64,000 bases of DNA, taken from contig ML978135.1 of assembly GCA_010015805.1 (NCBI GenBank), forward strand, positions 248,001-312,000, read 5' to 3'. Below, in pieces: positions 251 to 50,649 of the stretch. Below the pieces are notes generated by a model. It did no database searches. It was not told the DNA's origin and saw nothing but the letters and a program-made list of their open reading frames with translations. Origin of the DNA: Rhizodiscina lignyota. Lineage: Eukaryota. Position numbers and translations under genes: made by a program. How positions within the stretch are numbered: position 1 is the first letter of the stretch; the number at the start of each line of letters is the position of its first letter.

Positions 251-1126
251 ATGAACGCGCCTGATAGGTGAGCTTTTCCTTTCGACACTTGGTGTATCAC
301 ATCCATAAAGATGCAGTTACTACCTCTGTTAGGATTCTCTCCCAGCAGAGCTCTTGTATGCGCATCGCGTCGGGTGACTGGGTCGTTGCTGCCTCACGGT
401 TGAAATGAGCAGTAACACGCGACTTCCCTATTCCAACACACACCACAAACTGTATTTCCTTTGCGCTTTCAGAGTTCACACACCTCTACGATTTCTCTTT
501 CACACTGTCTGCAATGCCTCACATCGCTGAAACCGCGCCTGACAGATTCGAGCTCTTTATTCTCGGCGACGGCGAGAAGAAGGTGACATGGAACCTTGAT
601 ACAAGTAAGGCCACCTTCGAGCACACATCGTTTCCATATACAGCCCTCCTCTGCCGAATATTTGGGATACTGCATTCAGCTTCAAGTTTGAAGCTCCATT
701 GAAGCAGCCAGTTACTCTCCGAGCCATCGGAAGATTGCTGGCGCGTCATGGTGGCTCAGGCTCTTATCACTGCGGCTACTTCTTCTTATGGCAAAACGTA
801 CGGCCGGAGAGGGAGACTGACAAATTACTTTTGCAGGAGTGCCAAACACCGCCATCTTCACCTTCAACAAAGAGGATCACACGCTCGGACACCTCCTCTC
901 CTCCCGACTACACAAGTACAGCTACGTCCAATTCTCGGCATATATCATTCCACATCCGCTTCTACCTTCCTTCGACCTGCGCGTCACGACAGACGGCAGT
1001 GTAAGCCCGAAAGATGCGATCGTCCAGGCGTGCAGGGATATTGTCGGGGAGTTGGACCAGCTGAGTCGGGAGTTCACAAAAGAGTGGGAGTTGAAGAAGA
1101 TTGCAAATACTGAATCTAGGAATTAA
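251..1126 (+). CDS. RPB11: RNA polymerase II subunit RPB11 (3 exons: 251-267, 546-604, 837-1126)
   Basis: Spliced translation MNAPDRFELFILGDGEKKV...RVPNTAIFTFNKEDHTLG...HP...EF is the recognisable RPB11 signature; both introns are GT-AG. Confidence 0.95.
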
Positions 1127-1959
1127 AGTATCTTCTTTGGATCTGGATCTTCTACCGTCGGCACTTGCATTTGAAATGGAGTTTTGGAGATTTGAAAGGC
1201 GGATGGCACTCGGAAATCGGAATGATACTGGAATGAGGCTACACATTCGGTCGGTCGGCGTAAAATGAAATGTATGTCGGACCGTAGCTACAAAAGGCCC
1301 ACTTCTCCCGGGCTATTTTTCCAAGTTCAATAGAATTTGGAATTAAAATGACAGTTCTTGGCTATGCCGCGGTACAGTAAACACTTACTCATCCACCCCT
1401 CCGCTCCATTCCGCCAAGACCTTTTACCGGAACCAGTTCAATAATCTTGTCTGCGATTTTTATCCGTTTCGCTAGATCTCTGAGTTTGAATTACCCGCGT
1501 CCCCTACTTGCCCTATCTGCATCCCGATGCGGCGCCGCGCGGAGAGGCGACGATTAGTCAGTAGGTAGTCTGCTTGGCGAGTACGAGTAGGTGTAGCACG
1601 AGTACGTCTGGCACTTCGCGAAGCTGTCCCTGAACGCCACTCCTGCAACTCGCGGCCCTCCAGCCTCTCGTATTTGCAGCCGCGTCAATCAGAGGCTCTG
1701 AATTGATGACAGTTCTTGCATCGACCTATCCGCAAGTCTCGGCCCTGCCCGATCCTCGCCCCGATCCTCGTTCGTAGAACTGCTAGATGATGCAACTTAA
1801 ACCTCTAGCAGCTTCTTGCCTGTTGCCGAACCAACTTCCAGAATAGCTGAAGGCAACACGGTATAAGTATATAGCTCAATTTCCTGTCTCAATTTCAGTT
1901 TCAGCTGCTAGGCAAGTTTTCGAGTCGCTGCACACTGTTTACTTCACCCGCTCAAGCAA

Positions 1960-3224
1960 ATGCGAGCTCAATTGCTTTCCGTAGCTCTCGTAGCTACCCT
2001 TGTCTCAGCTGAGCCATGGGGTCACCCATCATGGCAGTCGAAAGATTCTTGCATTGAATTCTTCGTATCCGTTCCAGTTGATACGGTGACTTATCCACCT
2101 CTGTTCCCGCCCTTTGCAAATCAGTACGAGGCAACGGAGAATCTCCTTCAATCGACGAGTCGTACTGCTCCTCCTGCGACCGCCGTACTAGGCGAGCCAA
2201 AGAACATAAGCACCACATTCAAAATCAGCGCGAAGTACTGTCCACCAGCTGGTCATGGTTATGGCGAGAGCGTCGACACTGTTCTCCTCCTGACCCATGG
2301 TCTTGGATTCGATAAGAGGTAGGCTTCCCCACGATTCAACTCAAATGCTCCGACTAACGCAAAGTCTAGCTACTGGTCCTTCGAATTCCCACCGGGCGAC
2401 CCATCGAAGTACAGTTTCACCGCGCACGCCACTCCCAAAGGTTTCGCGACACTCTCCTACGACCGCCTGGGCTGCGGCTCCTCGGAACACCTGGACCCTT
2501 ACAACACCATCCAAGCGCAAATCGAGCTTGCAACGCTCATCTCACTTACCAGACTCCTGCGCGAAGGCAAACTGCACCACAGCGTGCCTGTGCCGAAGAA
2601 AGTCGTCCATGTCGGCCACTCCTGGGGCAGCCTTCTGTCCAACGGGCTTGCGTCGGCTGCAGGTGATCTCACTGATGGCATTGTCCTGACTGGCTTCTCG
2701 CACTTGGTGATATACCAGCAGTGGTTCTTGCACAGCACTGGATACCATCTTGCGAGCCTGAATCAGCCGAAGAGATTCGGAAACTTTGAGTCGGGCTATC
2801 TGACATGGGGCGACCAGGTCTATAACCAGTATAGCTTCCTCACTTGGCCATTCTTCGACCCAGGAGTGTTGAAGTTTGCGGAGGACAACAAGTGGCCGTT
2901 TACCGCGGGCGAGTTCTTGACGGGAGGCTTCGTGCCTGTTGTTTCTCCGGGGTTCAAGAAGCCGGTGCTGGTAAGCAGATTGTCATTATACATCGTTAGT
3001 TATGTGTGCTAATGGAGTTGTAGATGATGGTTGCCGAGTTCGATCTCATCTTCTGCGGCGCGAACTGCACGGGTATTGTCTCGGGACCGGCCCACCAGGT
3101 GTTCCCCGATGCCGACCTGCAGATCTATGAGCAGCCGAATACGGGGCATGGTATGAATCTGCATTTCAATGCGACCGGTTGGTATGATGTGGTGTTTGAT
3201 TGGGTTAAGAGTCATGATCTGTAA
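1960..3224 (+). CDS. Secreted alpha/beta-hydrolase (3 exons, approx. 1960-2318, 2370-2970, 3024-3224)
   Basis: Signal peptide MRAQLLSVALVATLVSA; LLTHGLGFDK, YDRLGCG and GHSWG nucleophile elbow; EFDLIFC and GHGMNLH (catalytic His). Confidence 0.85.
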
Positions 3225-3499
3225 GATGATTTGCGTGAGAAGATGGCGGCCGGGGATTCAGCATGCAAGTATGTAATCGCATAGTGTCGTAGTATGATTA
3301 GAGATTTCGATACCAATTGCACATTTCATTCGATTTTGCGATAAGATACACGTCCTTTTGGCTTTTAAAATAAATTCATTGGACGGACATTGTGCTGACT
3401 TGAGTTCATATAATCCGAAACTTCTGGAGTTCCAGCTGATCTAATCTCGAATCTCGATGCCCGATCTTTGCGCAGTTCGCAGGTAACACCTTTTCCATA

Positions 3500-4530
3500 A
3501 TCGTTGGTCTTTCCGAGCTTTGAAGCACACACCAGCAAACCGGCGCCTGGAGTAAGCATTCTCCAATGAGGCGATAATGCTCTCCACCTTCACGTTTCCG
3601 CAAGACGAAGGGATTAACTGCTCCTTCGAACAAACATCTCAGGTCGGTATCAACCGTCCCGGTGGGCCAAGGGCAATGTGATTGCGCATGAGGAGTATCT
3701 TCCTTCCTTCTCCGAAAACAGAAAGGCGTCCACATGAATATAGCCTGCGAAAATGGCTGAGAACGCCCCTCATCTTCCTGAGCGCATTGTTTAATCTGAG
3801 AATACCCCGTCTCAGCTTCTGGCTCTTTTGATCTGTTCCAAGTTTGTTTAATATCTTCCTCAATCTGTTTCGTGATGTTCCACTTATCATCGTTCAAGTT
3901 GCTCTATTCATCATCCTCAACATAGTTCGATGATTTCCCTCTCCTAAATTGTAACGTGATCGGTATATGATGGGAAATTCCAATCGGCTGTCTATGGAAT
4001 TATGATATCCGGGAATCTCCAGCCAATCAGTGACAAAGTTCTTCCAGCTTATTGAATGGAATTGTGGGAGATATTCCAGAATCCAGAAATAAATAATGAC
4101 CTGAATCGTCAGTAACAACATTCGTCGAATTCAAGAGGATACTTGGAACATAATGATGGAATATTAGACTTCATGACTCGTCGTCGCAAGAAGATACCGA
4201 TCCGATAATACTCCCGAAATCTATGGTCTCGTAGTAAGCTAATATCCATCAATAACATCAAGGAAGCGGGCGAGGGCCCGTGGTGCAAACGTTCTGCTTC
4301 GAACTTTGCCACGACTGTCTCCATTAAGAAGCCGCGAACTACGAACTCGCTGTGCTGCGTAATTCCGAACCAGGGGTTCATTGGCCCACCGGAAACGCGT
4401 AAGACTTTGCTGGACGGCGGTAGGCTTTATAGTGTCCACAAGATGGGCTCGGGACCTTTAGGGATGGAGGCAGAGAACTTTGGAACCCATGATGGTGGGC
4501 TTCCAGTGAACCCTGAGTTATAAAAATCTA
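3500..4530 (-). pseudogene. Decayed C-terminal part of a HET-domain-type gene
   Basis: Minus-strand frames give PPSWVPKF (LPSWVP-like), HIALGP...LFEGAVNPFVLRK...YRLIGEC, broken by stops and frameshifts. Limits are approximate. Confidence 0.6.
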
Positions 4531-4708
4531 CCATATTGAATATGCGGAACCCTCCACTCTTGCTAATGCAATACTCAGTTACTTCTCGAAATATGTCCGC
4601 ATGGAGTGTTATATAATCGGGCTTACGTGCATCGGAGTGCGCGGAAATATCCTACTCTTTCTATAGCCTTACTAGACCTGCAAGTCTCTCTATCCACTTC
4701 GACGGGAG

Positions 4709-5813
4709 CTACATTTCAGCATCAATCTGAACTGAGCTTGGAGGCTGTTTCCTGCTGAAATCAGGTTTCACGGTATGCTTCCTCTCTGAAACCCAATCCC
4801 TTATTGCTTGGAAGTCACGACACGTATGAGTGACATCGGAGACGACATAATTCCTTCCCAGACCTGGAAAATATTTCGTCGGAACCGGTGTGATGTCGCC
4901 GGCACACATGATGTATTGACGGATTTGCTCAATGCAGTGGCCTTGGGATTTTCTCAGCAGTGTTCATCATGTCAATAATGTGGCTCACCTTGATGGAGCA
5001 ACTGGTCTTCCGACATCCTGATTGAATAGTATCTTGGAAAGAGCCATTTCCGTATTTCGTGCTGTCACTGTCAGTACCTCTCCGTTCGGATAACATTGAT
5101 TGTCTTACAACGCAGTGCAACGTGTGAAACATGTCAAGCCTTGAACTTTGTAAGCGTTGATCTCAAAGACTTATTCCAGTGAACCAAGAATTACCCTGCC
5201 CGATAGCCACCAGCAGCATAGTTCCAGTACTGATCATATTCGTCTCCCCAATGATCTCTCGCTTCTTCCTCGGTTATCAAGAAGTAACGATCTATGACTG
5301 AGTCAATTTCGCTATCGATCCCTGACATTTTCACATTCCTTGCCTCGTAAAAGATCGTCCCATGCCTCGTCAATCTGCGGGTTCGGAAGGCCAACATATT
5401 TGATCGGATCAGAGTGAGGAACATAAGGAGTACCATCGGCCCTGAATTCGGGGCTTCCAGTAAAAGTAACAAGCGATTTTCTCAATGCCGACTTCGCAGG
5501 CCCTGCTTAAAGTTAGGTTGAACACCTTTCTGCATCGGAAATGCGTACCAAAATCTGTTTCATATTCAGAAATGAGGCCGGCCGATGTACCCTCCAATTG
5601 GGCAGTCGATGTACATTCCAACTGTTTTGGGAACATGTAAAGACCAAGCGCGACGAAAGCGAAGAATATAGTCGAACAAATCCACGGAATAGAGCCTGTC
5701 TCACTCCAGAAGGTCCTTCTCAGTCCATAGTCGAGTTCCTCTGCATGGCTTTGGTGAGCGCTCGACTTTAGTGGGACATACTTCGCTTGCTTGCTCAAGC
5801 GAAGCCAATGCAT
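4709..5813 (-). CDS. UstYa-like / DUF3328 oxidase, copy 1 (6 exons: 5813-5549, 5502-5344, 5291-5195, 5139-5109, 5061-4989, 4941-4709)
   Basis: N-terminal TM helix; YVGLPNPQIDEAWDDLL; GLDMFHTLHCV and HQGHCIEQIRQYIMCAGDITP (two HxxHC motifs); HTCRDF...W tail typical of the family. Confidence 0.92.
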
Positions 5814-6503
5814 AGTTAGACCAGCACGGGATGGGAATTAGATTTGACAAAGTGTAACAACCTTCAGGACGGCAAGTCTCGCAATTCCAGGAGAAATGGC
5901 AGCAAAAGGGCGAAAAGTGCAGGAAAATAGGGTCAGAACGCAGCGTCTTAGTTGTGCGGTTTTTGGTTCGTCGCCTCGCACATCAGTCCGTAGCGAGTAT
6001 AGAGATTACGATGCCACGCCATCATGCGGTGTGTCTGACATGAGAGCGCATCCTGTCAGCCTTCTCCATGTTTTTGGAGCCTTGAAAATCTGCGGGTCAT
6101 AACGGAACTGCTTTCAATTATCAAGTTCCACCGAGTCGGGATCGTTGGCGGCTGGAAAGGCCGTCCGCAATGCCCGAAGATGGAAATGGCAAAGAGCCCG
6201 ACTGTCATTTCATCCTTTCCCAATCTCAATCCCTATCTAGCGGAGCCTCATTTTCAACAGCAAGCACTACCGCTTCATGGTCGCACAATGCTTGAACCTT
6301 TGCTAATGAGGGAAACCCACGTAGTAGGCTCCGCACTATATCATAAAGTATTATTATTATGCAGAGCAAGCGAGTAAAAGGCACCGTAATCGACATTAAA
6401 CTTCTGCTAACGAAGAATCAATCCGAAATCAGATCCTATCAAAGCACAGCCGTCTTCGCAGCCTCCAAACAATGGCTATGCACCATTCTTGCCACCCATG
6501 TTC

Positions 6504-7597
6504 TCAATCGCGTTTCTCATTGCCATCTCTCCATTCCTTAAAGAATTTGTTCCCTGGGAATTTCCACCAGACACTCGTAAGATCCTCCCAAGGGAGTTGA
6601 TCAGCTGGGGGATCATTCAAGATCTTATCAATTTCATCCTTTGAGAGTAACGGGTCAAATGAAGCTGGAATTTGGTGATCTTTCGCCCAGTCCTGAACCT
6701 TCTCAAAATTACGACATGTGTGGCTCGTTGCTATGCGAGGGAATATTCCGGTGGAGATGGGCATATTAACATGCCATGAATTCGGGGATACATCTGCATT
6801 ACACATCAAGGCCTGGCGAAGGGCGTCGATACAATGCTCTACAATTAGAATATGTTAGACTCTTATTCTACGTATGTCACACCAGGAAACTTACCCCAAT
6901 GCCACCAGCCAGTCCAGTTACGATTTATCTGTCCATTCTCAATTCTCCACATATGAGGGTATCTTTCAGGCCAGATTGCTTTCCGAAGGTCGTTCAAACA
7001 ATGTAGCTGATGAAAAACATCTAGCTGCACCAAGTACTGCTTCGTTCCGGGAATATTTAGTGTTGGGTGAGGTAATCTGGCCGCTTCTTTCTCCGAGATT
7101 ACACTATTTCCAACTGGTACAGCAGTTAGTTCTGGGCTAAATCACTTAATTCTCCTCGCTACAGATCTTACAATTATACAATTCCTCCCATAGTCTATCG
7201 GTTTTATTCGTAGGGACTCCCATGTATTTTCCCGTCGTAAAGAATGTAGCATCAAATCTCTGTGGATGATACTCAATCACCGAATTTGCTGGCGCTATGT
7301 CAAAGAATAGAGTTAGCTTATGAACATTTCGAACATCTCTTTCAAGTACTTACACCATATTCCTAGTGTTGGGTCTCTCGTCTGAGTAGGGCGTGTAACA
7401 ATAATGAGAAGAAGAATACAAAGCGTGATGTTTAGGATATATGATAAGACAAGAGGAAGTTTGCAACACCTGGAAGCCGCTTTGGCTGCTTCCTCAGAGC
7501 TGTCATCCTGCAGTAGCGTCTTCTCTTCATCTAGAACTACTTTCTCCTCTGCATCCTCATACGGGTGCTCGACTCGATGATAAGTCCAAGGTGCCAT
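6504..7597 (-). CDS. UstYa-like / DUF3328 oxidase, copy 2 (4 exons: 7597-7354, 7294-7172, 7113-6895, 6838-6504)
   Basis: TM helix then SPANSVIEY; YMGVPTNKTDRLWEELY; LDVFHQLHCLNDLRK; HWEHCIDALRQALMCNADVSP; HTCRNFEKVQDWA. Confidence 0.93.
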
Positions 7598-8060
7598 TGC
7601 TGATAGTCATAGAGCGGAGAAAATCTAAAGAGAAGAAAGTCTAATAAGCACGAATAATCTCTTTTCATCTCTAAAAGCACGATAAGCACAGATCCCCACC
7701 CAGAAATCTCAAATCTCCACTTAACTAGGTTATACTATGGAAAAGCAGTTTCACAATATAACAATACTTAGAATATTATTTAAAACCGAAAAATTGCTCT
7801 TCCAGAAAGGGAATCACGCAACCCTGGTAATCGGGTACGATGGGGTCTATGCAGGGGGTAGTTCGCCCTATAGACCACATTACTTCGACACCACAGATAA
7901 GTCAAATCATAAATCCAGCCGAGTCCAACTATAAAATGAGCTGAGATCAGCTGAGTGCAGCTGTGCAGCTAGGATATGTAATTGTGGAGCTTCTCAGCAT
8001 TTGAACATACGTCTTCAGCGGCTTTTTGGATCGCTCAAGCTCTTCACTCACTACATGCCA

Positions 8061-8069
8061 TTTATATAA
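8061..8069 (+). promoter_or_regulatory. Putative TATA box of the precursor-peptide gene
   Basis: TTTATATAA about 100 nt upstream of ATG 8165, followed by a CA/CT-rich 5' leader. Confidence 0.4.
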
Positions 8070-8164
8070 CCTTCAAACGAATCATCCACATCTTCAGCGA
8101 CTCAATCGTCAGTCTACCACGAGCACACAATTTTCCCATATTTTTCCTCCCCTCAATTTACAAA

Positions 8165-8475
8165 ATGAGACTTGGGTCTTCTTTCTTCCTTGCGGCTCTG
8201 TCCATCATGGCCACAAATGCGGCAGCTCTCCCAAGTTAGTACTATTATAACCGAGTGTCATTAGAAAAAGCCTAACTCCTCATTTTAGGCCCTAATGCAT
8301 TGTCGCAAGATGGGATTGTACTTCCACGCGTAATTGAGCAAGGTATTTGGCTTGCGCTTTTATCAACCTAAAGGATTTCTAACTGAAACTTCTTCTAGTT
8401 CAGCAATCGAAGGAAAAGAGAGCGGAGAATAGTGTCGATAGTACCTCTTTGACAGAGTACGAGGACTATTTTTAG
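8165..8475 (+). CDS. Small secreted Kex2-type precursor peptide, 66 aa, putative RiPP precursor (exons 8165-8234, 8289-8342, 8399-8475)
   Basis: CAAAATG start context. Introns GTTAGT..CTAAC..TAG (54 nt) and GTATTT..CTAAC..TAG (56 nt) join into MRLGSSFFLAALSIMATNAAALPSPNALSQDGIVLPRVIEQVQQSKEKRAENSVDSTSLTEYEDYF*. Confidence 0.82.
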
Positions 8476-9155: not shown

Positions 9156-9356
9156 GAGCTTCAGAATTGAACAATGAGGCGAAGCTTTAGAATTGAGCAA
9201 TGATTCAATGAGGTAAAAGCTTAGAATTAAGTAATAAGGCGAATGCTTTAGAATTAAGCAATGGTTTAATAAGGCGAAAGCTTCGGGATTGAACAATGAG
9301 GTGAGCAATGACTCAATAAGGCAAAAGCTTTAGGATTAGGTAATAACTCAAAGAGG
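9156..9356. repeat. Degenerate AT-rich tandem repeat (~6 units of AAGCTTYRGAATTRARCAATRA(...)GGCG)
   Basis: Recurrent aagctt(t/c)agaatt(g/a)a(g/a)caat(g/a)a..ggc units whose differences are mostly C/T and G/A. Confidence 0.75.
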
Positions 9357-9623: not shown

Positions 9624-10016
9624 TCATCCCTCAACCTTGCAAACAACTTTGACAATGATCTCATCAAAGTTCTTGATAGAGTACGTATAACCAACTTCCT
9701 CAAAATTGAAACTCTCCACAATCTTAGATTCCTCGAAAAAGATTTTGCAAAAGACTTCACCGTGGTCGAGTGCAAGATGCCTAACAACTAGCCCTTTTCC
9801 CTTTACATGGGGAGTGATCTCGCCGTTGTAGGGGATATTGGCATAATAAGGTTTGTCAACGCCGACGATCTCCATGCCGAAAGTCTTCTCCTTCGAATAG
9901 TAGCTGGATCTCTTCTGCAAACCGATGTTTCGGACCTCGTTGATAGCAGTAGGGGTAGCGGTGACCAAGCTTGCAGCCGCGATGAAACTCTGAATGATAA
10001 GAGTATTGAAGTGCAT
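9624..10016 (-). CDS. Small secreted protein (130 aa), effector-like, with KR processing site
   Basis: Intronless ORF; signal peptide MHFNTLIIQSFIAAASLVTA; propeptide ending LQKR; two Cys; TATA-like tract about 150 nt upstream. Confidence 0.75.
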   Translation of the reverse strand: MHFNTLIIQSFIAAASLVTATPTAINEVRNIGLQKRSSYYSKEKTFGMEIVGVDKPYYANIPYNGEITPHVKGKGLVVRHLALDHGEVFCKIFFEESKIVESFNFEEVGYTYSIKNFDEIIVKVVCKVEG

Positions 10017-10649
10017 TTTGATCGATGTTGGATTTGGAGACTTGTTTCAAAGACGTGTGGAAGAGAACGATAGGTTGAAGGATATGCACTTCGTCCACAA
10101 TGAACGACTGGTTTGAGTTATGATGGTAATCGGGATAACTTGAGATGCAAGTCCGTCCTCTCTATATATATTATAGGGAATCAGCATTGGGTAATCTCAG
10201 TTTGGTGTATCGCTCTCGCCGGTCTACAGTATATGTCCACAAAAAGCAATCTTCGGGGGTCTCAGGCAAGTACGAGAAAATGCTCAGTCTGATTGGATTA
10301 ATTGCAGGCATCGCAGAACGACGAGTCGATGACCACGGTTCCGCTTACTCCTGTCCATAAGTAAGACCTTGATCGTCAATACATGAGCATTTAGCGTACT
10401 ACGACGTTAGGACCCAATTGCGCATATAAGAACATATCAAATGGTAAGCATATGGTCTTATGTGAGATTTGGTCGAGTGGATAGATTTGAATATGATATA
10501 CGAATAGGTTTTACTGCAAACGGTAACTACCTATAACTGAATAGAGATATTGGATTATTTGGGATTAGACAGTTAGGCTTGGTACGTTATTTAACGTACG
10601 AGAAAGGCCGAAAAGTTCAAGTCCGTAAAATACAGTGTTCGAGGTTAAC

Positions 10650-10960
10650 TTGACTAAATGCATATAACGTCTATCTAGAGTCGGCGGCGGAGATCTCCAC
10701 GATAACGAAATTGGCGGAGAACAGAGGCATAGTTTTTGGTCTTGAACAGCTGGGAGTCCTTCCCCACTGTCGGACACAGGAGTCTCCGATTTTACAATAT
10801 CACCATCTTCCGTGACCCATGAGTACGAGATAGCCTCGTAGCTGATAGATTCAACGGTTTGGTTCAGTTTGGTTTTTACAAGTTCGCCACAAAGGTCATT
10901 ATCATCGTCATAGCCGTACAGTAAGGACGCGAATTTGGTCAGTGCATTCCAAATGCGTGT
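10650..10960 (-). pseudogene. Decayed N-terminal HET domain remnant
   Basis: LCGELVKTKL...SYEAISYSW, then after a frameshift TKNYASVLRQFRYRGDLRRRL*IDVICI*. This matches the HET motifs YEALSYxW and RxLWIDAICINQ with Trp changed to TAG. Confidence 0.7.
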
Positions 10961-12702
10961 AGCAGCAAGATTGGCGTGTTCCCTGGTCGACGTGCTTGCC
11001 CTAGGGCGGAGCTTGGTTCGTTGTCTTACCTTCCCCTCTGAAATGAGACTTGGGTTGTGCTCGCTCTTCGTCTTCTTCATCGTTGGAGGATGATGCGCTC
11101 TTTCCCCCTGAGCGTCAAAGATGCCTTTGTGAATGCCGTTGGCGTCATCGCACCCTGCGATGTTGAAGTGGTTAAGAATACTGAGAGATTATAGTTAGGG
11201 TAAGTGAATACTTCAAGAGTTGAAGAAAGTAGCGCTGCCACTGCGAGGGGAATTTGGGAAAATGTCCGCCTCAACGTTGAAGTGGAGTTCCCCATTCAGT
11301 GGCCAGAATCTTATCAAGCCGAAGCTATTCGATTGTTCTAGGCTCTTTGAGACTTTGATTGCTTTGAGGCTGTTAGATGGCTCCAAGTCTCTTAATCGCC
11401 CCTTCAGCGTGCAACATCGGGGAAGATAGAACTGGCTCCGTCTTTTACGGCCGACATGCAATCATGCATGGGGAGGTTCAGCTGCCTTGCCTGCACGTCA
11501 GGCTGGCCAACGAGCGATCCCCACTGCGTTGGTGAGCTGCATGTGCAATGGGCGAATCATGCGAAGCTCACCCGCTCCCCTCTACGCTGGCGACAAGGAC
11601 AATGCTCGCTGTCCTAAATACCAGACTACCAGTTGCCTTATTAGACACCACTCATAGACACCTCTTGCCATTTTAAAAATTTGTCATGGGAATCCAGATA
11701 GAAGATGCAATGCATTCCAACAATGTATACCGCGCTCTTTGCTGAAATTGGAAAACTTTCAATTGCCCTAAAGGGTCATATTAGCGACCCAGGGTGGCAG
11801 AGCAATGCCGTCATCGCCTCTTCGAGTCCGAACTGGGTCATTTGCTGTTCGAAGACACGCCTCGGAAGAACAACCGCTAATAACGAAGGAGGAAAGCTTC
11901 TCGGTGTGCCGGCTTCCTGGGGCGAAGCTGGAGGACTTCTTGAATCAGAAGTTTCCGCAAGTCTTGCATTCAATATTCGCGTAAGTTCTCTCATGCCCAT
12001 TCATAAGCGCAATGCGAATGATGATCCTGCTGTAGGTTGAAATGGACCGATATGTATTCAGCATCCCAAAGGACGCAGCATTCACAGACGTAAGCTCCGA
12101 CCGCAAAATAATATTTCACCTCAGGCAAAAGTCAAATAATAAAGGGCATAGCTGACTAAGCGACTGCAAGGGACATTGGACAAGGCTGCATTGCAAGATC
12201 TGAGGGAGGGCGCTGGCGAAAAGGGGCTGAAGAACTCCTCCCCCTCCGGCGCCGCCACATCCTCACCATTGCACGCCCTGTGACCCCATGCCATGATGCC
12301 CAGAGCTGGCGAGGCTCTGCTACTGCACGCTGAATCATTTCTCTCCCGATTATTGTGCGTGAGATCGGTTCTCTGTGAAATGGCCCGACTAGCGTGGTGC
12401 TTGGCAAAGTTTCGTTCACCTGGATCTCATTTTCCGGCTCAAGCCCAGCCTCGCAGCAGCTTTCTCGAGCAAGTGATCTCTGCGCAACCAATCTCACGAG
12501 AGTCACGATACTCTAGCTATGATGGACGAGCAGCTGCCGAGGATAGTAGTGTGGAGGCATAGCGGGTATAAGTAGGTATGCATTGCAAGGATCCGACGCG
12601 CTGGAATTCCATAGGATATTTGTTGCGCGTAGCACATCACCGTGCTGTCGTCTCCCGTCCAGCGCGATTGTCTATTCATCTGGATCGAGCGCTAAAACGA
12701 CA

Positions 12703-15019
12703 ATGACGGACGTGAAGCCGGACGACTCGCACTCCGCGGCAGATGTTGAGCACAGCGAAGTCACGCCGAAGCTGTCGCACGACGTGGAGAAGTCCTCCTC
12801 ACAGGAGAAGCCAGCGGCGACATCTTATATTCCTCAGAGCGACGAGGAATATGACGTGACGTATGTTCATTTTGCTCTTCGCCTTAGTCGGGCGTCTTCC
12901 TGGGCCACGACCAGCTCTCATACCCCAATCAACTAGTACACAAACCACAAGATGTGTAGCTAATTCTTTACAGCCTCAAAACATGGCTAGTTGTCTTTAT
13001 TCTCTCCTGCTCGTACGGCATCTCATTCTGGATCGTGCCTGCCTTGTCCCCAGCAGTTGCGATCGTTGCAACTGAGCTCGGCGATGCTACGAAATCGGCT
13101 TTCTTCGTGTCCACGTATGTTTGCCCTTTAACAGATCAGACAGGATCGGTTCTTAGAGGAGCTCTACTAATTGCTTTACAGTTATCTTATCGCTATCACT
13201 ATAACATTCATGATTTGTGGCGCAAACAGCGACTTATTTGGCCGACGATGGTTCATCGTCGGAGGCAATGTCCTGTTATTTATCGGCTTCATTGTCGGCG
13301 GCACAGCGAAGAGCAATAACGGAATGATTGCTGCTATGGCACTCATCGGCATCGGCGCTGGAAATTCCCAACTGGCGGCCTTTGCCTTGCCAGAACTTCT
13401 GCCAAACAAGTGGAGGCCTGCAGCCGTTGTCATGGCTGATGGCGTTCTGTTTTTCACTGTCCTCATTGGCCCAGTTGCTGGACGCTGGTCCGGCGCCCAC
13501 GGGCACTCGTGGCGATGGTTATTCTATGCCCCGGCAATTGCGGTTTTCGGATCCTTTGTAGGTTTATACCTCTTTTACTACCCACCAAAGCATCCTCGAG
13601 GATTACCGTGGAACCAGGCCCTCCGAGAGCTCGACTATGGCGGCGCCTTGCTGTTCATTACCTCCACCGCTTTGATCCTGACCGGCGTCAACTACACCAC
13701 GATTCGAAAGTCCTCGGACCCGGTAGTCATCGGCCTACTGTGCTCTGGCTTTGGAACTTTAGTTCTTTTCATCCTATATGAAACTTTCATGCCTCTCAAG
13801 CAGCCTCTGACACCAACGCGTGTGTTCACTCGTGGTAAAGGCCGGGAGCTTACCGCACCCTTTGTGGCAGCTTTCGTAGTCACTGTATGTGGAAATTGAG
13901 CAGGACTGTATTTGCACAATAACTGATTGAGACCAGATGTTTTATTATGCGATCAACATTATCTACCCGACAATGATCAATGTCTTCTTCTCAGCTGAAG
14001 GCGATTACAAGTACCAGGCAGTGCTTACTCTCCCGAGCAACCTGGGTCTCATTCTCGGCGCTGTCTTGCTCACGGCCTTCGGCTTAAAGATCGGCCACTG
14101 GCGCTGGACACTCACAGGGAGCGTCTTTATCATGGTATTCTTTGGTGCACTTTTGGGTGTGGGTACACCGGAGCGCAAAGGGTATTTACGATCAGCAGCT
14201 CAATATCGAATTGTACTGACGGTTCTAGGACAATGATCGCGATGGTATTCATTGGCCAGGTCGGCTTCGGCTGGGCACAGTACCTCTCCATCGCTTACGT
14301 ACAGTTCGGATGCGACCAGGTTGAGCTGGGCATTTCTGGCGGCCTTGCAGGTGTGGCGCGTTTCGCCGGCGGTGCTGTGGCTATATCAGTTTACACCGCA
14401 ATCCTCACCAACGTCCAAGGGAACCACATGGCTAAGCTCGTTCCCCCGGCAGCCGAAGCAGCGGGCCTACCCTCTAGTTCAGTCCCTGCTCTAATGGCTG
14501 CTCTGCCATTAGGATCTGCTGCCATTGCCCAGGTTCCAGGGATCACGACTCAGATAGCCTTGGCTGCTGCAAAAGCGTTCCAACAGAGCTATGTTATTGG
14601 CCTGAGGACAACTGCACTATCATCTCTTGCATTTGGTATCCCGGCAATTATTGGTAAGTTCAACCCATCGAGCTTTTGGACAATGCAACTTGGGCAAATC
14701 TTTCAACGACCGCTTTCATTACGCCTGAGGCTGAGAGCTTGAAAAGCTCGAGGCTCTGTTAGAGGCCAAGTTCAAAGTCCTTCTGTGATACAAGCCGGCC
14801 TCCTAGCAACAGTTTCAACGGCTGCTCAGCAGGCTCGTCCGATGGATGGAAGACTGTCCAGTTTGCGTTGATCACAAGCTTGCCCCATCGTTTGATTTGC
14901 AGTATACTGATCCATGAATAGCTTGCATCTGCTGCCAAGACATCGACGAGAAGATGACCAACAAGATTGAGGTCTTCTTGGAGAACGACAAGAATGCCGA
15001 TAAGAACGTTTACCACTAG
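12703..15019 (+). CDS. MFS transporter, TRI12 (fungal trichothecene efflux pump)-like family; multi-exon, last exon 14921-15019
   Basis: SDLFGRRWF, PELLPNKWR, WRWLFY, FYYPPKHPRG, LDYGG motifs; many TM helices; terminal exon CQDIDEKMTNKIEVFLEND. Confidence 0.9.
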
Positions 15020-46147: not shown

Positions 46148-46932
46148 GGTAGGTAAGGATCCTCCTCTGCTAATCGTAAGGACCACCTAGAGGCTCCAGA
46201 CGAGTTCTTGAATCGTTTCCCTTCGATTCTTTACACATCCACTACCAAAAGCTGAATGTCATTATCGTCGTCGTTTTGAGCCATCTTGTATGAACTGTAT
46301 CTTTGCTCATGCCGAACAGAGCACCTGTGAGGCACAGTATGATATTGCAGAAGGAAGTGAAAGATCATAGAGGTCGACACAACACGCGACGATTGAGGCT
46401 CAAGTGGGGGTGTGTGCGCATCTCTTATTTCACCGGCGAAGAGCTTGGTCAAGGTTCAGTCTGATCTGCATCACACGAAACCAGATTGGTCATGTCTGTC
46501 CGCTCGCGCTCTATCCAGTATCAGATACGATAGACGAATTGAGGAGTGGCAGGCAGGGGGCATGCCACGCGTCCGGCTCAAACCAGCCATTGGACTGCAG
46601 GACTCACGAAGCGACCTGCCGAACTCGTGCTGAAAAATCATAACACCATCTAGCAGCTGAGTGCTCGATGGCTTGCATCAATGGCTTGCATGAATGAGGG
46701 GGTTGTGCCAATGAGTCCAACTCGCGACCAGCCTTCTCGTGCCCATCAGCCAGGCTCGCGATGGCGACAGATGATGCATGATTGGCGGCAGTTGGGGCGT
46801 TCCAGAGGCTCTATGGATGCTCTTCTATAACTACTTCCTGCCTGCAGCCTTGTCAGGTATTTACTCCGTAGTCCCCGGCGCACTCTCCCCTTACCTTTCA
46901 GCTTCGCCGCATGGCATTGTCCGTCCGTGGCA

Positions 46933-49900
46933 ATGGAAAACAACTTACATTTTTCCAATGAGGCTCTACAGGAGCTCCTCCTGAAGCTCTCACATGATAC
47001 AGTAAATGGACAGGGATTGGCATCTCAATCTTTCAACTCGCGTATCGGTCTCCGCCCCGAGAGCGAAAAGCATGATCTCGGACCGTTTAGTTACGATGAC
47101 ATCCCGCGGGACGGCCAATGGATACGAGTCCTGAAAATCTTACCGAGTTCCCGGAACAATCCTCAAGTTGAATGCGAGATCATTGAAACACAATTGGATT
47201 CACCGACCCGGGAGTACCAACGATATGAAGCCTTATCTTGGTGTTGGGGTCAGGGACCTGAAACAGGCCATGTTGGCATCAGAAAGAATGGAAAGCTTTA
47301 TGCAAAGCCCGCTAAGCTGGACCTCGTCAGAGCGCTCCTTGTGCTTCGGAACACCAAAAAGGACCGCTACCTTTGGGTTGATCAAATTTGTATCAACCAG
47401 GCAAACACAGCCGAAAAGAATCATCAAGTTGAGATGATGGCCGAAATCTATGGAAAAGCAGCTCGTGTGTGCGTCTGGTTGGGCGAGCGAGATAACACCA
47501 GCCACCTGGCGCTAACCTTCATCCGCGATGAGGTGCTGAAGCTGCAGCAATTCGATGACCTCTGCGAACGGGAAGGGAATTCGCATAAGTGGAAAGCCCT
47601 TCTCGATCTAATGCAACGCCCCTGGTTCCACCGCAGATGGGTTGTTCAAGAGATATCTCTCGCTCAAAGTGCACTTATGTACTGCGGCCCAGATCGAATA
47701 TCGTGGAAGAAGTTTTCAATCGCCGTGGAGCTCTTTGTAGAGGTTGAAACAGCTACACATCGACTTTCGGAAGTAATGAAGAGGGATCGCAAGTTTCACC
47801 ACATACCCGGCTGGTTCGAACACGTTTCTCAACTCGGAGCAAGTCTTTTAGTAGATGCCACTGGAAGGCTCTTCCGTGATCATAAATCACAATACTTAAG
47901 CTCACAAACTATTCCGACTCATCGCGCCAAGCGCGTATATGACTCTGATAAGGAAGATTTGACCGAGTCCGATCATGAGTATTCTGAGGACGAATTGGTC
48001 GATCCTTATATGACCGGTTTGGACACCCAGAATTCAGATATGGATGAAGAGGTACAATCAACTCGAGCGAACCAAGAGGTTGATTTCTACGATCCTGTTG
48101 TTGAGGGTACCGTAACTGTGAAAGGCCAACCACTGCTAAGTTTGGAATATCTCGTTTCCAGCTTATCGATCTTTGATGTAACCAAGGCCCACGATACGAT
48201 TTATGCGCTCCTTGCGATTGCAAGAGATACGACTCCGCGAGCAACAACGAGTATGGATTGGGAAGATCACACTCAAGCTGCATTGGAGAGGTTTACGCAA
48301 AAGAAACGCTATAAAGTTGACTACAGCCAAGAATATGTCGACATTTGTCAATATTTCATTCAATTCTGCATTGATCGATCTCTTCAAAAGGATCCTAGCC
48401 GTGCTCTCGATGTTATCCTCAGACCTTGGGCCGTCGAAGAGTCTAAAGTGCGGGAGAACTGGTTAGAAGAGCGACGAAAGGAAGAAGAGGAGAGAAAGAG
48501 GAAGAAGAGGTTAGAGGCTAAGATTCAAATCAACAAGAATAGGTCGCTATATACTGCGCCTAATCCCAAGCCCTGGGAAGACGAGAACCCGAATCTCTCC
48601 AGGCATGCTCACATCGAAATACGGCGGAAAGAGTACGTTCCTCTGCCATCATGGGTACCACAGCTCTCCCGCGCGCCGTTTGCAATGTCACAAGCGGCAG
48701 GTGTATCTGGAGAGAAGGTTGGACGGGCAAATGCGGACCCGCTGGTGGGATTGCCGAATCAGTTCCAGAGAAGTTACGCTGCTGCTGAGACCAAGAAACT
48801 GGACACGAAAGCATTCAAGTTCCGAAAGCGGATGGGTGAGAAGCTGAACTACTTCAGCATGTTCGTCAAAGGGTTCGTCTTGGACGAAATCAGCGAAGTA
48901 AAGGATGCATCGCAATCAGGTAGCATTCCGTCGGAGTGGGCCGATTTCGCACATTGGTATGGAGCAAAAGGCGATCCCCCTGATGCCTTCTGGAGGACGC
49001 TTGTTGGAGATAGAGGGCGGGACGGCAAGAATCCTCCTGTTTACTATTCACGAGCTTGTAGAGAATCGTTCGAGAAAGGTGGTTATCTGTCTGGATCTGT
49101 CAGCACGTCGGATCTAATTCGGAACGAGAGAGTCTCCGTGATTGCCCAATTTTGTTGGAGAGTCCAGGCGGTGATCTGGAAAAGAGCACTGGCTAAAACC
49201 AAGTCGAATCGACTGGCATTGGTCAGTCCAGGTGTTCAGCCAGGTGATTTGGTTTGCGTTTTATACGGTTGTAGTGTTCCAGTCATATTGCACAAAAGTC
49301 AACGGAAAGATGACAAGGTGGTGGATCGAGAGGTGCAACTGGAAAAGGAGTACCTGCAGCAACGAATGGTTCAATGCGCTCGCAACTGGTTCAAGCGCAC
49401 TGAATACTACCGGAAGAAGAGAGAACAGGGGAAGTGGAAGTATCAGGTATGGGATATGAGAAAGCGTCTGGAATTTAATACAGAGAGGAAGTCGGAGACT
49501 TGGCAAGAGCACTGGAAAATTAATAGGCTGAACTACAAGACTCGGGGTGATTTAGCTGGGCGAGAACACTTCTTTCCGGAATCAAGAGACCAGCCTCCCC
49601 CGGAAGTGAGTGCCTTCATTTTAGCTTCGAGGAAACGTCTCGTGGTAGAAGCACAGCGCCTACTCCGAGCTTCAAGGGGTCGACTACTTACCGAAGTGGA
49701 ACGCTACATGCGGCTTTCTCGGGCTGAAGTGGAGACATTGATTGACGCACTGCGGAACAAATGGTTACCAGAGGAGAAAGCGCGTGACAAGACTATCCCT
49801 GAAGTTAATGGGGAATCACAGACTAAGATTCCGAAGAGCAATGACGTTGCTGACGAACCTGCGACTCCGAAAGCTAATGACGATGCTGAAAAGGTCGTAG

Positions 49901-50649
49901 AAATGAGTGATGAGAAGTACAATGAAATTGTGAGTTATATGCACCGGCGAATATGGTATGAGCGTTTTGTACGATTGTGCGAATTTGAGGAATGGAAAGA
50001 ATGGACGAGAAAAGGAGGCAAGAAACTCCAGCTCGATAGCGCCATACATCAGCACCTGCAAGAAATTCCCTGGGCTACCGCTTCTTCGGCAAACATCACA
50101 CAAGGAACGACTACTCCACTGGAGACGTACAATGTGAATTCGGGGAAACCCAATGGCGTAGCCGCTCCTGTAAAGGAATCCGAACGCAAAAAGCAGGACG
50201 AGTGGACAACGCCTGGTATCGACTGGGCAAAGTTTGAGCTGCAACTGCGATATGCAAGGAAATGGAGAAATGTTGTAAAGCATAATCGAGATGCTATGAG
50301 GAAACAAATTGAGAAAGAGCTGCTCCAGCAGTCCGCGCGGTTACGTCACGAAAGGGGATGGATAGATCGACCAAAAGATGTAAAAGAATGTATTGTGCCA
50401 GAGACGGAACTTATCAGGGACGAGGAAACTGGCAAGGAGAGGGAGAAGCTCACAAAGGATGGGGCAGAGAAGGTCGAGCTAGAATGGACTAAAGGGATTA
50501 AGGAGTCTCTTGGGAACAGTGGATATTACTATTACAAGCTGCTTGGGGATTGTTATTTGCACCAAATGATGGACGGGGAAGCTATGGCAAGACAGAATGG
50601 CCAACCTAATGGCGCGTGGATTCCTTCTGAAGTCTTTGAGATAAGATAG
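46933..50649 (+). CDS. HET-domain (heterokaryon incompatibility) protein, ~1238 aa, intronless
   Basis: IRVLKILP, YEALSWCWG, YLWVDQICINQ...EKNHQVEMMAEIY..A..V.VWLG, RPWFHRRWVVQE, LPSWVP and YKLLGDCYLHQMMDGEA. Confidence 0.93.
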   Translation: MENNLHFSNEALQELLLKLSHDTVNGQGLASQSFNSRIGLRPESEKHDLGPFSYDDIPRDGQWIRVLKILPSSRNNPQVECEIIETQLDSPTREYQRYEALSWCWGQGPETGHVGIRKNGKLYAKPAKLDLVRALLVLRNTKKDRYLWVDQICINQANTAEKNHQVEMMAEIYGKAARVCVWLGERDNTSHLALTFIRDEVLKLQQFDDLCEREGNSHKWKALLDLMQRPWFHRRWVVQEISLAQSALMYCGPDRISWKKFSIAVELFVEVETATHRLSEVMKRDRKFHHIPGWFEHVSQLGASLLVDATGRLFRDHKSQYLSSQTIPTHRAKRVYDSDKEDLTESDHEYSEDELVDPYMTGLDTQNSDMDEEVQSTRANQEVDFYDPVVEGTVTVKGQPLLSLEYLVSSLSIFDVTKAHDTIYALLAIARDTTPRATTSMDWEDHTQAALERFTQKKRYKVDYSQEYVDICQYFIQFCIDRSLQKDPSRALDVILRPWAVEESKVRENWLEERRKEEEERKRKKRLEAKIQINKNRSLYTAPNPKPWEDENPNLSRHAHIEIRRKEYVPLPSWVPQLSRAPFAMSQAAGVSGEKVGRANADPLVGLPNQFQRSYAAAETKKLDTKAFKFRKRMGEKLNYFSMFVKGFVLDEISEVKDASQSGSIPSEWADFAHWYGAKGDPPDAFWRTLVGDRGRDGKNPPVYYSRACRESFEKGGYLSGSVSTSDLIRNERVSVIAQFCWRVQAVIWKRALAKTKSNRLALVSPGVQPGDLVCVLYGCSVPVILHKSQRKDDKVVDREVQLEKEYLQQRMVQCARNWFKRTEYYRKKREQGKWKYQVWDMRKRLEFNTERKSETWQEHWKINRLNYKTRGDLAGREHFFPESRDQPPPEVSAFILASRKRLVVEAQRLLRASRGRLLTEVERYMRLSRAEVETLIDALRNKWLPEEKARDKTIPEVNGESQTKIPKSNDVADEPATPKANDDAEKVVEMSDEKYNEIVSYMHRRIWYERFVRLCEFEEWKEWTRKGGKKLQLDSAIHQHLQEIPWATASSANITQGTTTPLETYNVNSGKPNGVAAPVKESERKKQDEWTTPGIDWAKFELQLRYARKWRNVVKHNRDAMRKQIEKELLQQSARLRHERGWIDRPKDVKECIVPETELIRDEETGKEREKLTKDGAEKVELEWTKGIKESLGNSGYYYYKLLGDCYLHQMMDGEAMARQNGQPNGAWIPSEVFEIR

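Follow-up and report, generated by a model that had tools for sequence, protein, structure and literature searches.

Dikaritin-type systems pair a Kex2-processed precursor peptide with oxidases of the UstYa family, also named DUF3328. The locus described here joins two UstYa genes, G1 and G2, with a small gene for a candidate precursor, and lies at positions 4709–8475 of a 64,000-nucleotide stretch of Rhizodiscina lignyota DNA (GenBank assembly GCA_010015805.1, contig ML978135.1, positions 248,001–312,000 of the forward strand), which is called the window below. The described system closest to it in economy is asperipin-2a (AprA, AprY), likewise a small dikaritin cluster with no tyrosinase. 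According to the available sections of PMC7329392, the Tyr-based side-chain macrocycles of asperipin-2a need only a DUF3328 enzyme and no tyrosinase, and AprY, the cyclase of this ribosomally made peptide that is modified after translation, is reported in the accessible part of PMC12435403 to depend on copper and O2. The likeness is by description only, as given in the portion of PMC7329392 at hand: AprA is multi-repeat and is served by one DUF3328 gene, whereas the window has two DUF3328 genes and one core. Ustiloxin (UstA, UstYa/UstYb, UstQ) resembles the locus in its DUF3328 pair, its signal-peptide, Kex2-processed precursor and its Tyr-containing core, as far as the available text of PMC7329392 and PMC12048977 describes it. 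It differs in having a tyrosinase, a methyltransferase, other tailoring enzymes and a highly repeated YAIG/YVIG core, none of which was found at the window locus. The same enzyme family and motif occur in cyclochlorotine biosynthesis (CctR and relatives), but there the enzymes act on a non-ribosomal cyclic peptide. Neither a non-ribosomal peptide synthetase (NRPS) nor a polyketide synthase (PKS) was found in Pfam scans of the window, which covered 22 + 18 long open reading frames (ORFs) across the 64 kb and 75 ORFs of at least 65 aa between 1 and 17 kb.

DUF3328 enzymes are described in the sections of PMC12435403 available as membrane-anchored, disulfide-linked dimers with a lumenal domain, in which the motif HxxHC(x)nHxxHC binds two coppers; O2 and electrons are required. 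A later definition of dikaritins, as worded in the available part of PMC12048977, asks only for a DUF3328 enzyme with two HxxHC motifs, and not for a tyrosinase or methyltransferase. Such an enzyme is present in the window. The older, classical definition does not cover the locus with regard to repeats, tyrosinase and methyltransferase, and the combination of tyrosinase and methyltransferase was not found between 1 and 17 kb or among the long window ORFs. Likewise, there is no tyrosinase or S41 peptidase among the 75 ORFs of the 1–17 kb region or the long window ORFs; the nearest cytochrome P450 (P450) gene lies at 30.7 kb and the nearest methyltransferase gene at 32.8 kb. An earlier, sequence-only reading of the window had stated that no tyrosinase, S41 peptidase or methyltransferase is adjacent, and no ORF of 65 aa or more in that region contradicts this. 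With regard to repeats, the small gene has one KR and one unit, against the secreted repeats split by KR or RR by which the accessible text of PMC7329392 defines KEP proteins.

We assign the locus, with moderate confidence, to an uncharacterised family of the dikaritin type, of which it would be a reduced member with a single core; in this family a Kex2-processed precursor is combined with UstYa enzymes. So far this reading is carried by position rather than by expression, chemistry or a significant sequence match. What is observed is the pair of enzymes with its motifs, a small gene built like a gene, and relatives in which the arrangement of a G2-like gene and a precursor is conserved. The sequence-only reading had proposed a new system. 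The locus is not one: it has the look of a reduced form within a Kex2-repeat/UstYa family that already exists and is chemically uncharacterised, and of this family it would be a candidate single-core minimal member.

To find the relatives, metagenome contigs were scanned with enzyme motifs of the G2 clade as the only seeds, and seven loci (L001–L007) were returned. Three of them are informative and independent, namely L001/L002 (counted as one organism), L003 and L004. L005 is without its 5′ side, and the near-identical L006 and L007 hold only about 500 bp upstream, in which no precursor was seen; these loci are uninformative and lend no support. In 3/3 informative loci the G2-clade gene stands head-to-head with a gene for a precursor carrying a signal peptide and KR-flanked Kex2 repeats. 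The L001/L002 precursor is 120 aa long with four units, one per exon (unit KR-EASVDEISAGLYTEWPRSVPEA), and is separated from the G2-like gene by 1198 bp. That of L003 has 122 aa and four units (KR-ETTVDEISEALYASWGLPDKK) at a spacer of 500 bp, and that of L004, in which the contig ends inside the gene, has at least four units (ASIDEISEALYASWKEPKNKR) at 594 bp. The spacer of 567 bp in the window is of this kind, and the small gene stands where the relatives have their precursor. In L003 the precursor lies between a G1-like and a G2-like gene, so that a trio of precursor, G1-clade and G2-clade UstYa genes is seen as in the window; a G1-clade gene accompanies the precursor in this one of the three informative loci.

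The unit consensus in the relatives is VD[EA]IS.ALY..W. Two-unit precursors of this family are annotated, as hypothetical proteins, in Rhypophila (P0015), Xylariales sp. (P0016) and Colletotrichum truncatum (P0017). Since two units are found in the annotated members and at least four in the metagenome members, the copy number varies, and a single unit would be the next step down. No description of the VD[EA]IS.ALY..W family was found in the searchable full texts or in the supplements of PMC7329392. In a tree of the enzymes, the G2-like genes of L001/L002, L003, L004, L005 and L006/L007 and the proteins P0001–P0004 form one clade of 11 rows. A starred clade (95/98) unites G1 with L003_1500, the second UstYa gene of L003, and P0007–P0014.

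The features of the locus and its surroundings are collected in Table 1.

Table 1. Positions of the genes and elements in the window (nucleotide 1 is the first letter of the window)
Feature	Position	Strand	Description
G1	4709–5813	−	UstYa/DUF3328, 6 exons, 285 aa, HTLHC and HQGHC; spliced model built by script
G1 exons	5813–5549, 5502–5344, 5291–5195, 5139–5109, 5061–4989, 4941–4709	−	
G1 intron	5292–5343	−	52 nt, GC-AG, donor GCAAGG; not in public model P0006
G2	6504–7597	−	UstYa/DUF3328, 4 exons, 306 aa, HQLHC and HWEHC; spliced model built by script
G2 exons	7597–7354, 7294–7172, 7113–6895, 6838–6504	−	
Divergent spacer between G2 and small gene	7598–8164		567 bp, ATG to ATG; TATATAA at 8063–8069
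Candidate precursor gene	8165–8475	+	Exons 8165–8234, 8289–8342, 8399–8475; 66 codons and stop; no cysteine
Single Lys-Arg	8416–8421	+	Only dibasic site; presumed Kex2 cut, after the dikaritin and KEP descriptions in the available text of PMC7329392
Single candidate core/recognition unit	8422–8472	+	AENSVDSTSLTEYEDYF; 17 aa, pI about 4.05, 1970 Da unmodified
Rpb11 housekeeping gene	821–1126		Left boundary of any cluster
Secreted alpha/beta-hydrolase	1912–3012	+	Abhydrolase_6, Abhydrolase_1; 1.7 kb beyond G1
Small secreted protein ORF	9627–10016	−	130 aa; signal-like N-terminus, then KR and a Tyr-rich stretch
TRI12-type major facilitator superfamily (MFS) pump	13171–14742		From Pfam scan; 4.7 kb from the small gene

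Both oxidases belong to the UstYa family by the PF11807 score and by the HxxHC(x)nHxxHC motif. When exon-level ORF pieces were scored, PF11807 matched five of the eight pieces, four of them above the Pfam gathering cut-off of 25 bits; the last exon of G1 reached 53.8 bits and the pieces of G2 65.9, 57.4 and 28.4 bits. Two intact spliced DUF3328 genes with these motifs had been claimed, and a HMMER comparison with PF11807 had been named as the check. Both oxidases match, and the spliced models agree with the claim. The two oxidases had also been called head-to-head; that orientation is found between G2 and the small gene, and G1 and G2 are a tandem on the minus strand. A hydrophobic stretch is visible by eye in both models, N-terminal in that of G1. 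G2 is 49–54% identical to P0001–P0004 and ends in an extension, FPGNKFFKEW, that is typical for the G2 clade. Its last exon found no 100% match among public proteins of 204–2000 aa, the best being 54%; public annotation may lack G2 or give it in a much shorter form.

For G1 the public model is P0006, which is 100% identical across the last G1 exon, is labelled in the database as a protein of the dothideomycete Rhizodiscina lignyota and bears a UniRef name referring to cyclochlorotine biosynthesis. Because P0006 lacks the GC-AG intron, some 55 of its residues are translated out of frame. With this intron removed, the G1 model scores 231 bits against P0008 and 224 bits against P0007, versus 173 bits in either case for P0006, and it aligns to homologues through ...AWDDLLR/DRYFLITEEEA (conserved as ...AW..L..(R/G)-RYFLITE.EA). 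At the same codon, and in the same phase, a GT-AG intron interrupts the G1-like gene of L003. G1 is intact only if the 52-nt GC-AG intron is accepted; the homologues and the L003 intron support it.

The predicted product of the small gene has a signal-like N-terminus, as seen by eye, a cysteine-free pro-region, one KR and an acidic tail of 17 residues that ends in YEDYF. A three-exon gene for 66 aa, beginning 567 bp from G2 on the opposite strand, had been predicted, and the spliced model agrees with this. The introns are 54 and 56 nt long, and each has a GT, a CTAAC branch site and a YAG. Only five intron-like sites of this form (GT/CTAAC/YAG) occur on the plus strand of the 64 kb, and two of the five lie inside the 311 bp of the small gene. 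Intron-like sites over the whole window number 11, versus 10.8 in shuffles, and are not in excess. CTAAC itself is found 25 times on the plus and 33 times on the minus strand of the window, where about 62 are expected from length alone; yet it serves as branch site in intron 1 of G1 and in every intron of G2 (three) and of the small gene (two). The intron lengths resemble those of G1 and G2, and so does the drop in GC content, from 0.473 in the exons to 0.345 in the introns of the small gene and from 0.45 to 0.364 in G2. The start context is CAAAATG, and on inspection the TATATAA lies about 100 nt upstream. No second copy of the unit, intact or decayed, was found downstream or in any frame of the window, and the small gene is therefore truly single-core. 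A 30-aa ORF covering exon 3 (8383–8472) gave no match among 1.84 billion representative proteins, although so short a query is a weak test. Since not even the ORF itself was among them, the small gene is not publicly annotated.

Whether the window peptide is a member of the family is answered differently by position and by sequence: by position it would be a member, and by sequence its membership is not established. After the KR the peptide is in register with the units of the relatives, as V-D-x-x-S-x3-Y-x2-aromatic (V0-D1-S4-Y8-aromatic11). In an ungapped profile (position-specific scoring matrix) its score was reached by 301 of 20000 shuffles (p about 0.015, nominal) and by 52 of 73863 six-frame positions. 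Full-length Smith-Waterman scores were nominally high as well, being matched by 4–9 of 500 shuffles against L002, L003 and P0015, and were probably driven by the signal peptides. Directly behind the signal peptide stands intron 1 of the small gene, in phase 1; L003 and L004 show the same, which gives weak support. The window shares with the family the G2-clade gene head-to-head with a small signal-peptide gene, the KR before the unit, the spacing V-D..S...Y..aromatic, the phase-1 intron of L003 and L004 and the G1-clade neighbour of L003. It differs in that the relatives have from two to at least four near-identical units ending in Trp, whereas the window has one diverged unit ending in Tyr-Phe. 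The relatives also have extra tailoring genes, with at least six UstYa genes in L003 and two P450 genes and a Sulfotransfer_4 gene in L002.

Several results weigh against membership of the reduced, single-core kind. A hidden Markov model (HMM) of eight units, searched with hmmsearch against the six-frame window, placed the peptide at E = 57, about rank 42 of 2852 ORFs. An HMM of 17 units from six organisms placed it at E = 130 and rank 93, with only 'SVD' aligned. Without the signal peptide, the Smith-Waterman scores were not significant, being matched by 35/500 shuffles for L002, 27/500 for L003 and 191–328/500 for P0015–P0017. The residues that are invariant in the six other organisms (E/A-I, L and W) are replaced in the window unit. 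G2 itself is a sister branch to the clade of 11 rows, with a support of 89/70 that is not starred, and the G1-like gene of L003 is on the other side of the precursor, so that only the arrangement of G2 and precursor is conserved. No shared k-mers or CGG..CCG sites beyond chance were found between the region upstream of G1 and the spacer of G2 and the precursor. Furthermore, the dikaritin precursors described in the accessible text of PMC7329392 and PMC12048977 are all multi-core. The sequence-only reading is upheld in part. A G2-clade gene is found beside a precursor in all three informative loci, and the sequence match of the peptide to the family is not significant. The assignment of the genes as a precursor with UstYa oxidases is likewise favoured by the three loci and by the lack of NRPS and PKS genes in the window, and the homology of the peptide is not statistically established by the two HMM searches or the profile.

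These results leave room for other explanations. It is unlikely, though worth considering, that the small gene is real and encodes an ordinary secreted acidic peptide or pro-protein, while the substrate of G1 and G2 is provided elsewhere, either by a precursor in trans or as a non-ribosomal peptide. The lack of significant similarity between the peptide and the family units speaks for this explanation. According to the available text of PMC7329392, a kingdom-wide survey, only 31.8% of 9399 DUF3328 genes lie within 15 genes of a repeat precursor; DUF3328 enzymes modify NRPS products too, as stated in the accessible part of PMC12435403, and the window holds only 4.7 kb to the left of G1. Nevertheless, a housekeeping gene bounds that left side and no NRPS is present in the 64 kb, the slot beside G2-clade genes is a precursor in every informative locus, and a cysteine-free pro-region of 43 residues with one KR and a Tyr-rich tail is unlike a folded secreted protein.

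Alternatively, the locus could be a decaying relic: of a precursor that once had several units, a single diverged one would be left, which the oxidases have ceased to recognise and from which no product is made. The loss of residues invariant in six other organisms would be expected from such decay, and a HET-domain gene and HET-like ORFs, the latter recognised by eye, are found in the neighbourhood. HET genes are typical of variable genome regions. We nevertheless regard decay as quite improbable: open frames and splice signals are preserved in all three genes, every HxxHC residue is retained, and remnants of further units are missing downstream. G2, too, has diverged as a sister to its clade, which fits a co-divergence of enzyme and substrate. 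There is only a slight chance that the small gene is an artefact of modelling, made when a signal-like ORF was extended through fortuitous GT..AG pairs. The absence of public annotation and of any match to exon 3, together with the ordinary window-wide frequency of intron-like sites, would agree with an artefact, but the placing of two of the five plus-strand CTAAC-bearing sites within 311 bp, the intron lengths and GC drop in keeping with G1 and G2, a frame that stays open over both junctions, the TATA box and good start context and the occupation of the relatives' precursor position all speak for a gene.

For the reduced dikaritin-type pathway favoured here, we infer expression, substrate relationship, cleavage, chemistry and export as follows. 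The prepropeptide of 66 residues would enter the endoplasmic reticulum (ER) through its putative signal peptide. In the secretory lumen the presumably membrane-anchored G2 and then G1, each using O2 and two coppers held by the paired HxxHC motifs, would oxidise side chains of the C-terminal unit. The first step would most likely be a cross-link of Tyr61 to Asp63 or Tyr64, which stand two and three places further along, and the second another cross-link, a hydroxylation or a desaturation. Kex2 would cut after Lys48-Arg49 to release a modified acidic peptide of at most 17 residues, which would then be secreted, possibly via the TRI12-type MFS pump.

Mining tools for dikaritin precursors search for repeats. 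UstYa clusters that lack a repeat precursor were reported in 2025 from a survey of lichen fungi, and the available text of PMC12048977 offers the speculation that such clusters could encode precursors with a single core. That the window locus is a working dikaritin pathway of this kind, with one unrepeated C-terminal core, two copper UstYa oxidases and no tyrosinase, can be put forward tentatively, with somewhat more doubt than confidence. If it is, repeat-based genome mining would systematically miss such precursors. Of the fungal DUF3328 genes without a neighbouring repeat precursor, roughly two-thirds of the total, some may then be partnered by single-core genes that are split by introns and have escaped annotation. 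With three genes in about 3.8 kb, and with multi-copy relatives that show the expected position of the precursor, the locus offers a neat and cheap test case for this idea. It also points to the uncharacterised VD[EA]IS.ALY..W precursor family with two dedicated UstYa clades, the chemistry of which is perhaps a Tyr-Trp link.

The clusters of the relatives show further features of their own. In L002 the precursor (7450–8027, minus strand) has one repeat unit per exon, with introns of 52–58 nt at the same place of the Lys-Arg codons in every unit. Judged by this exon layout, it is an exon-duplication way to build a multi-core precursor. Upstream of it (1094–7012, plus strand) are the two P450 genes and the Sulfotransfer_4 gene, whose products may take part in additional tailoring in the multi-copy relatives. 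In L003 (1–10607) at least six UstYa paralogues surround a single precursor in 10.6 kb. The L002 and L003 clusters also have in common a third UstYa clade (L003_10122, L002_11397 and L005_1046; 99/98), which is absent from the window.

In the surroundings of the window locus, any cluster is limited on the left by the housekeeping gene Rpb11. The interval from there to G1 holds the hydrolase and some ORFs with no assignment. The hydrolase beyond G1 may be a trimming peptidase, a possibility that is unsupported: its matches to proline iminopeptidases are sub-threshold only, and the nearest solved chains are named just 'Hydrolase'. The 130-aa ORF on the other side of the small gene was considered as an alternative precursor and set aside. 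It is annotated as hypothetical, its look-alike clusters are hypothetical small secreted proteins of Ascomycota, and the ESM Atlas contains an exact copy of it. A minisatellite (9157–9301; period 61, 2.4 copies, 77% matches) follows the small gene and precedes the next ORF. Farther to the right, an ORF on the minus strand (10568–11188) has by eye a start of HET type, 'YEAISYSW', with no Pfam match, and an ORF of 1272 aa on the plus strand (46831–50649) carries a HET domain.

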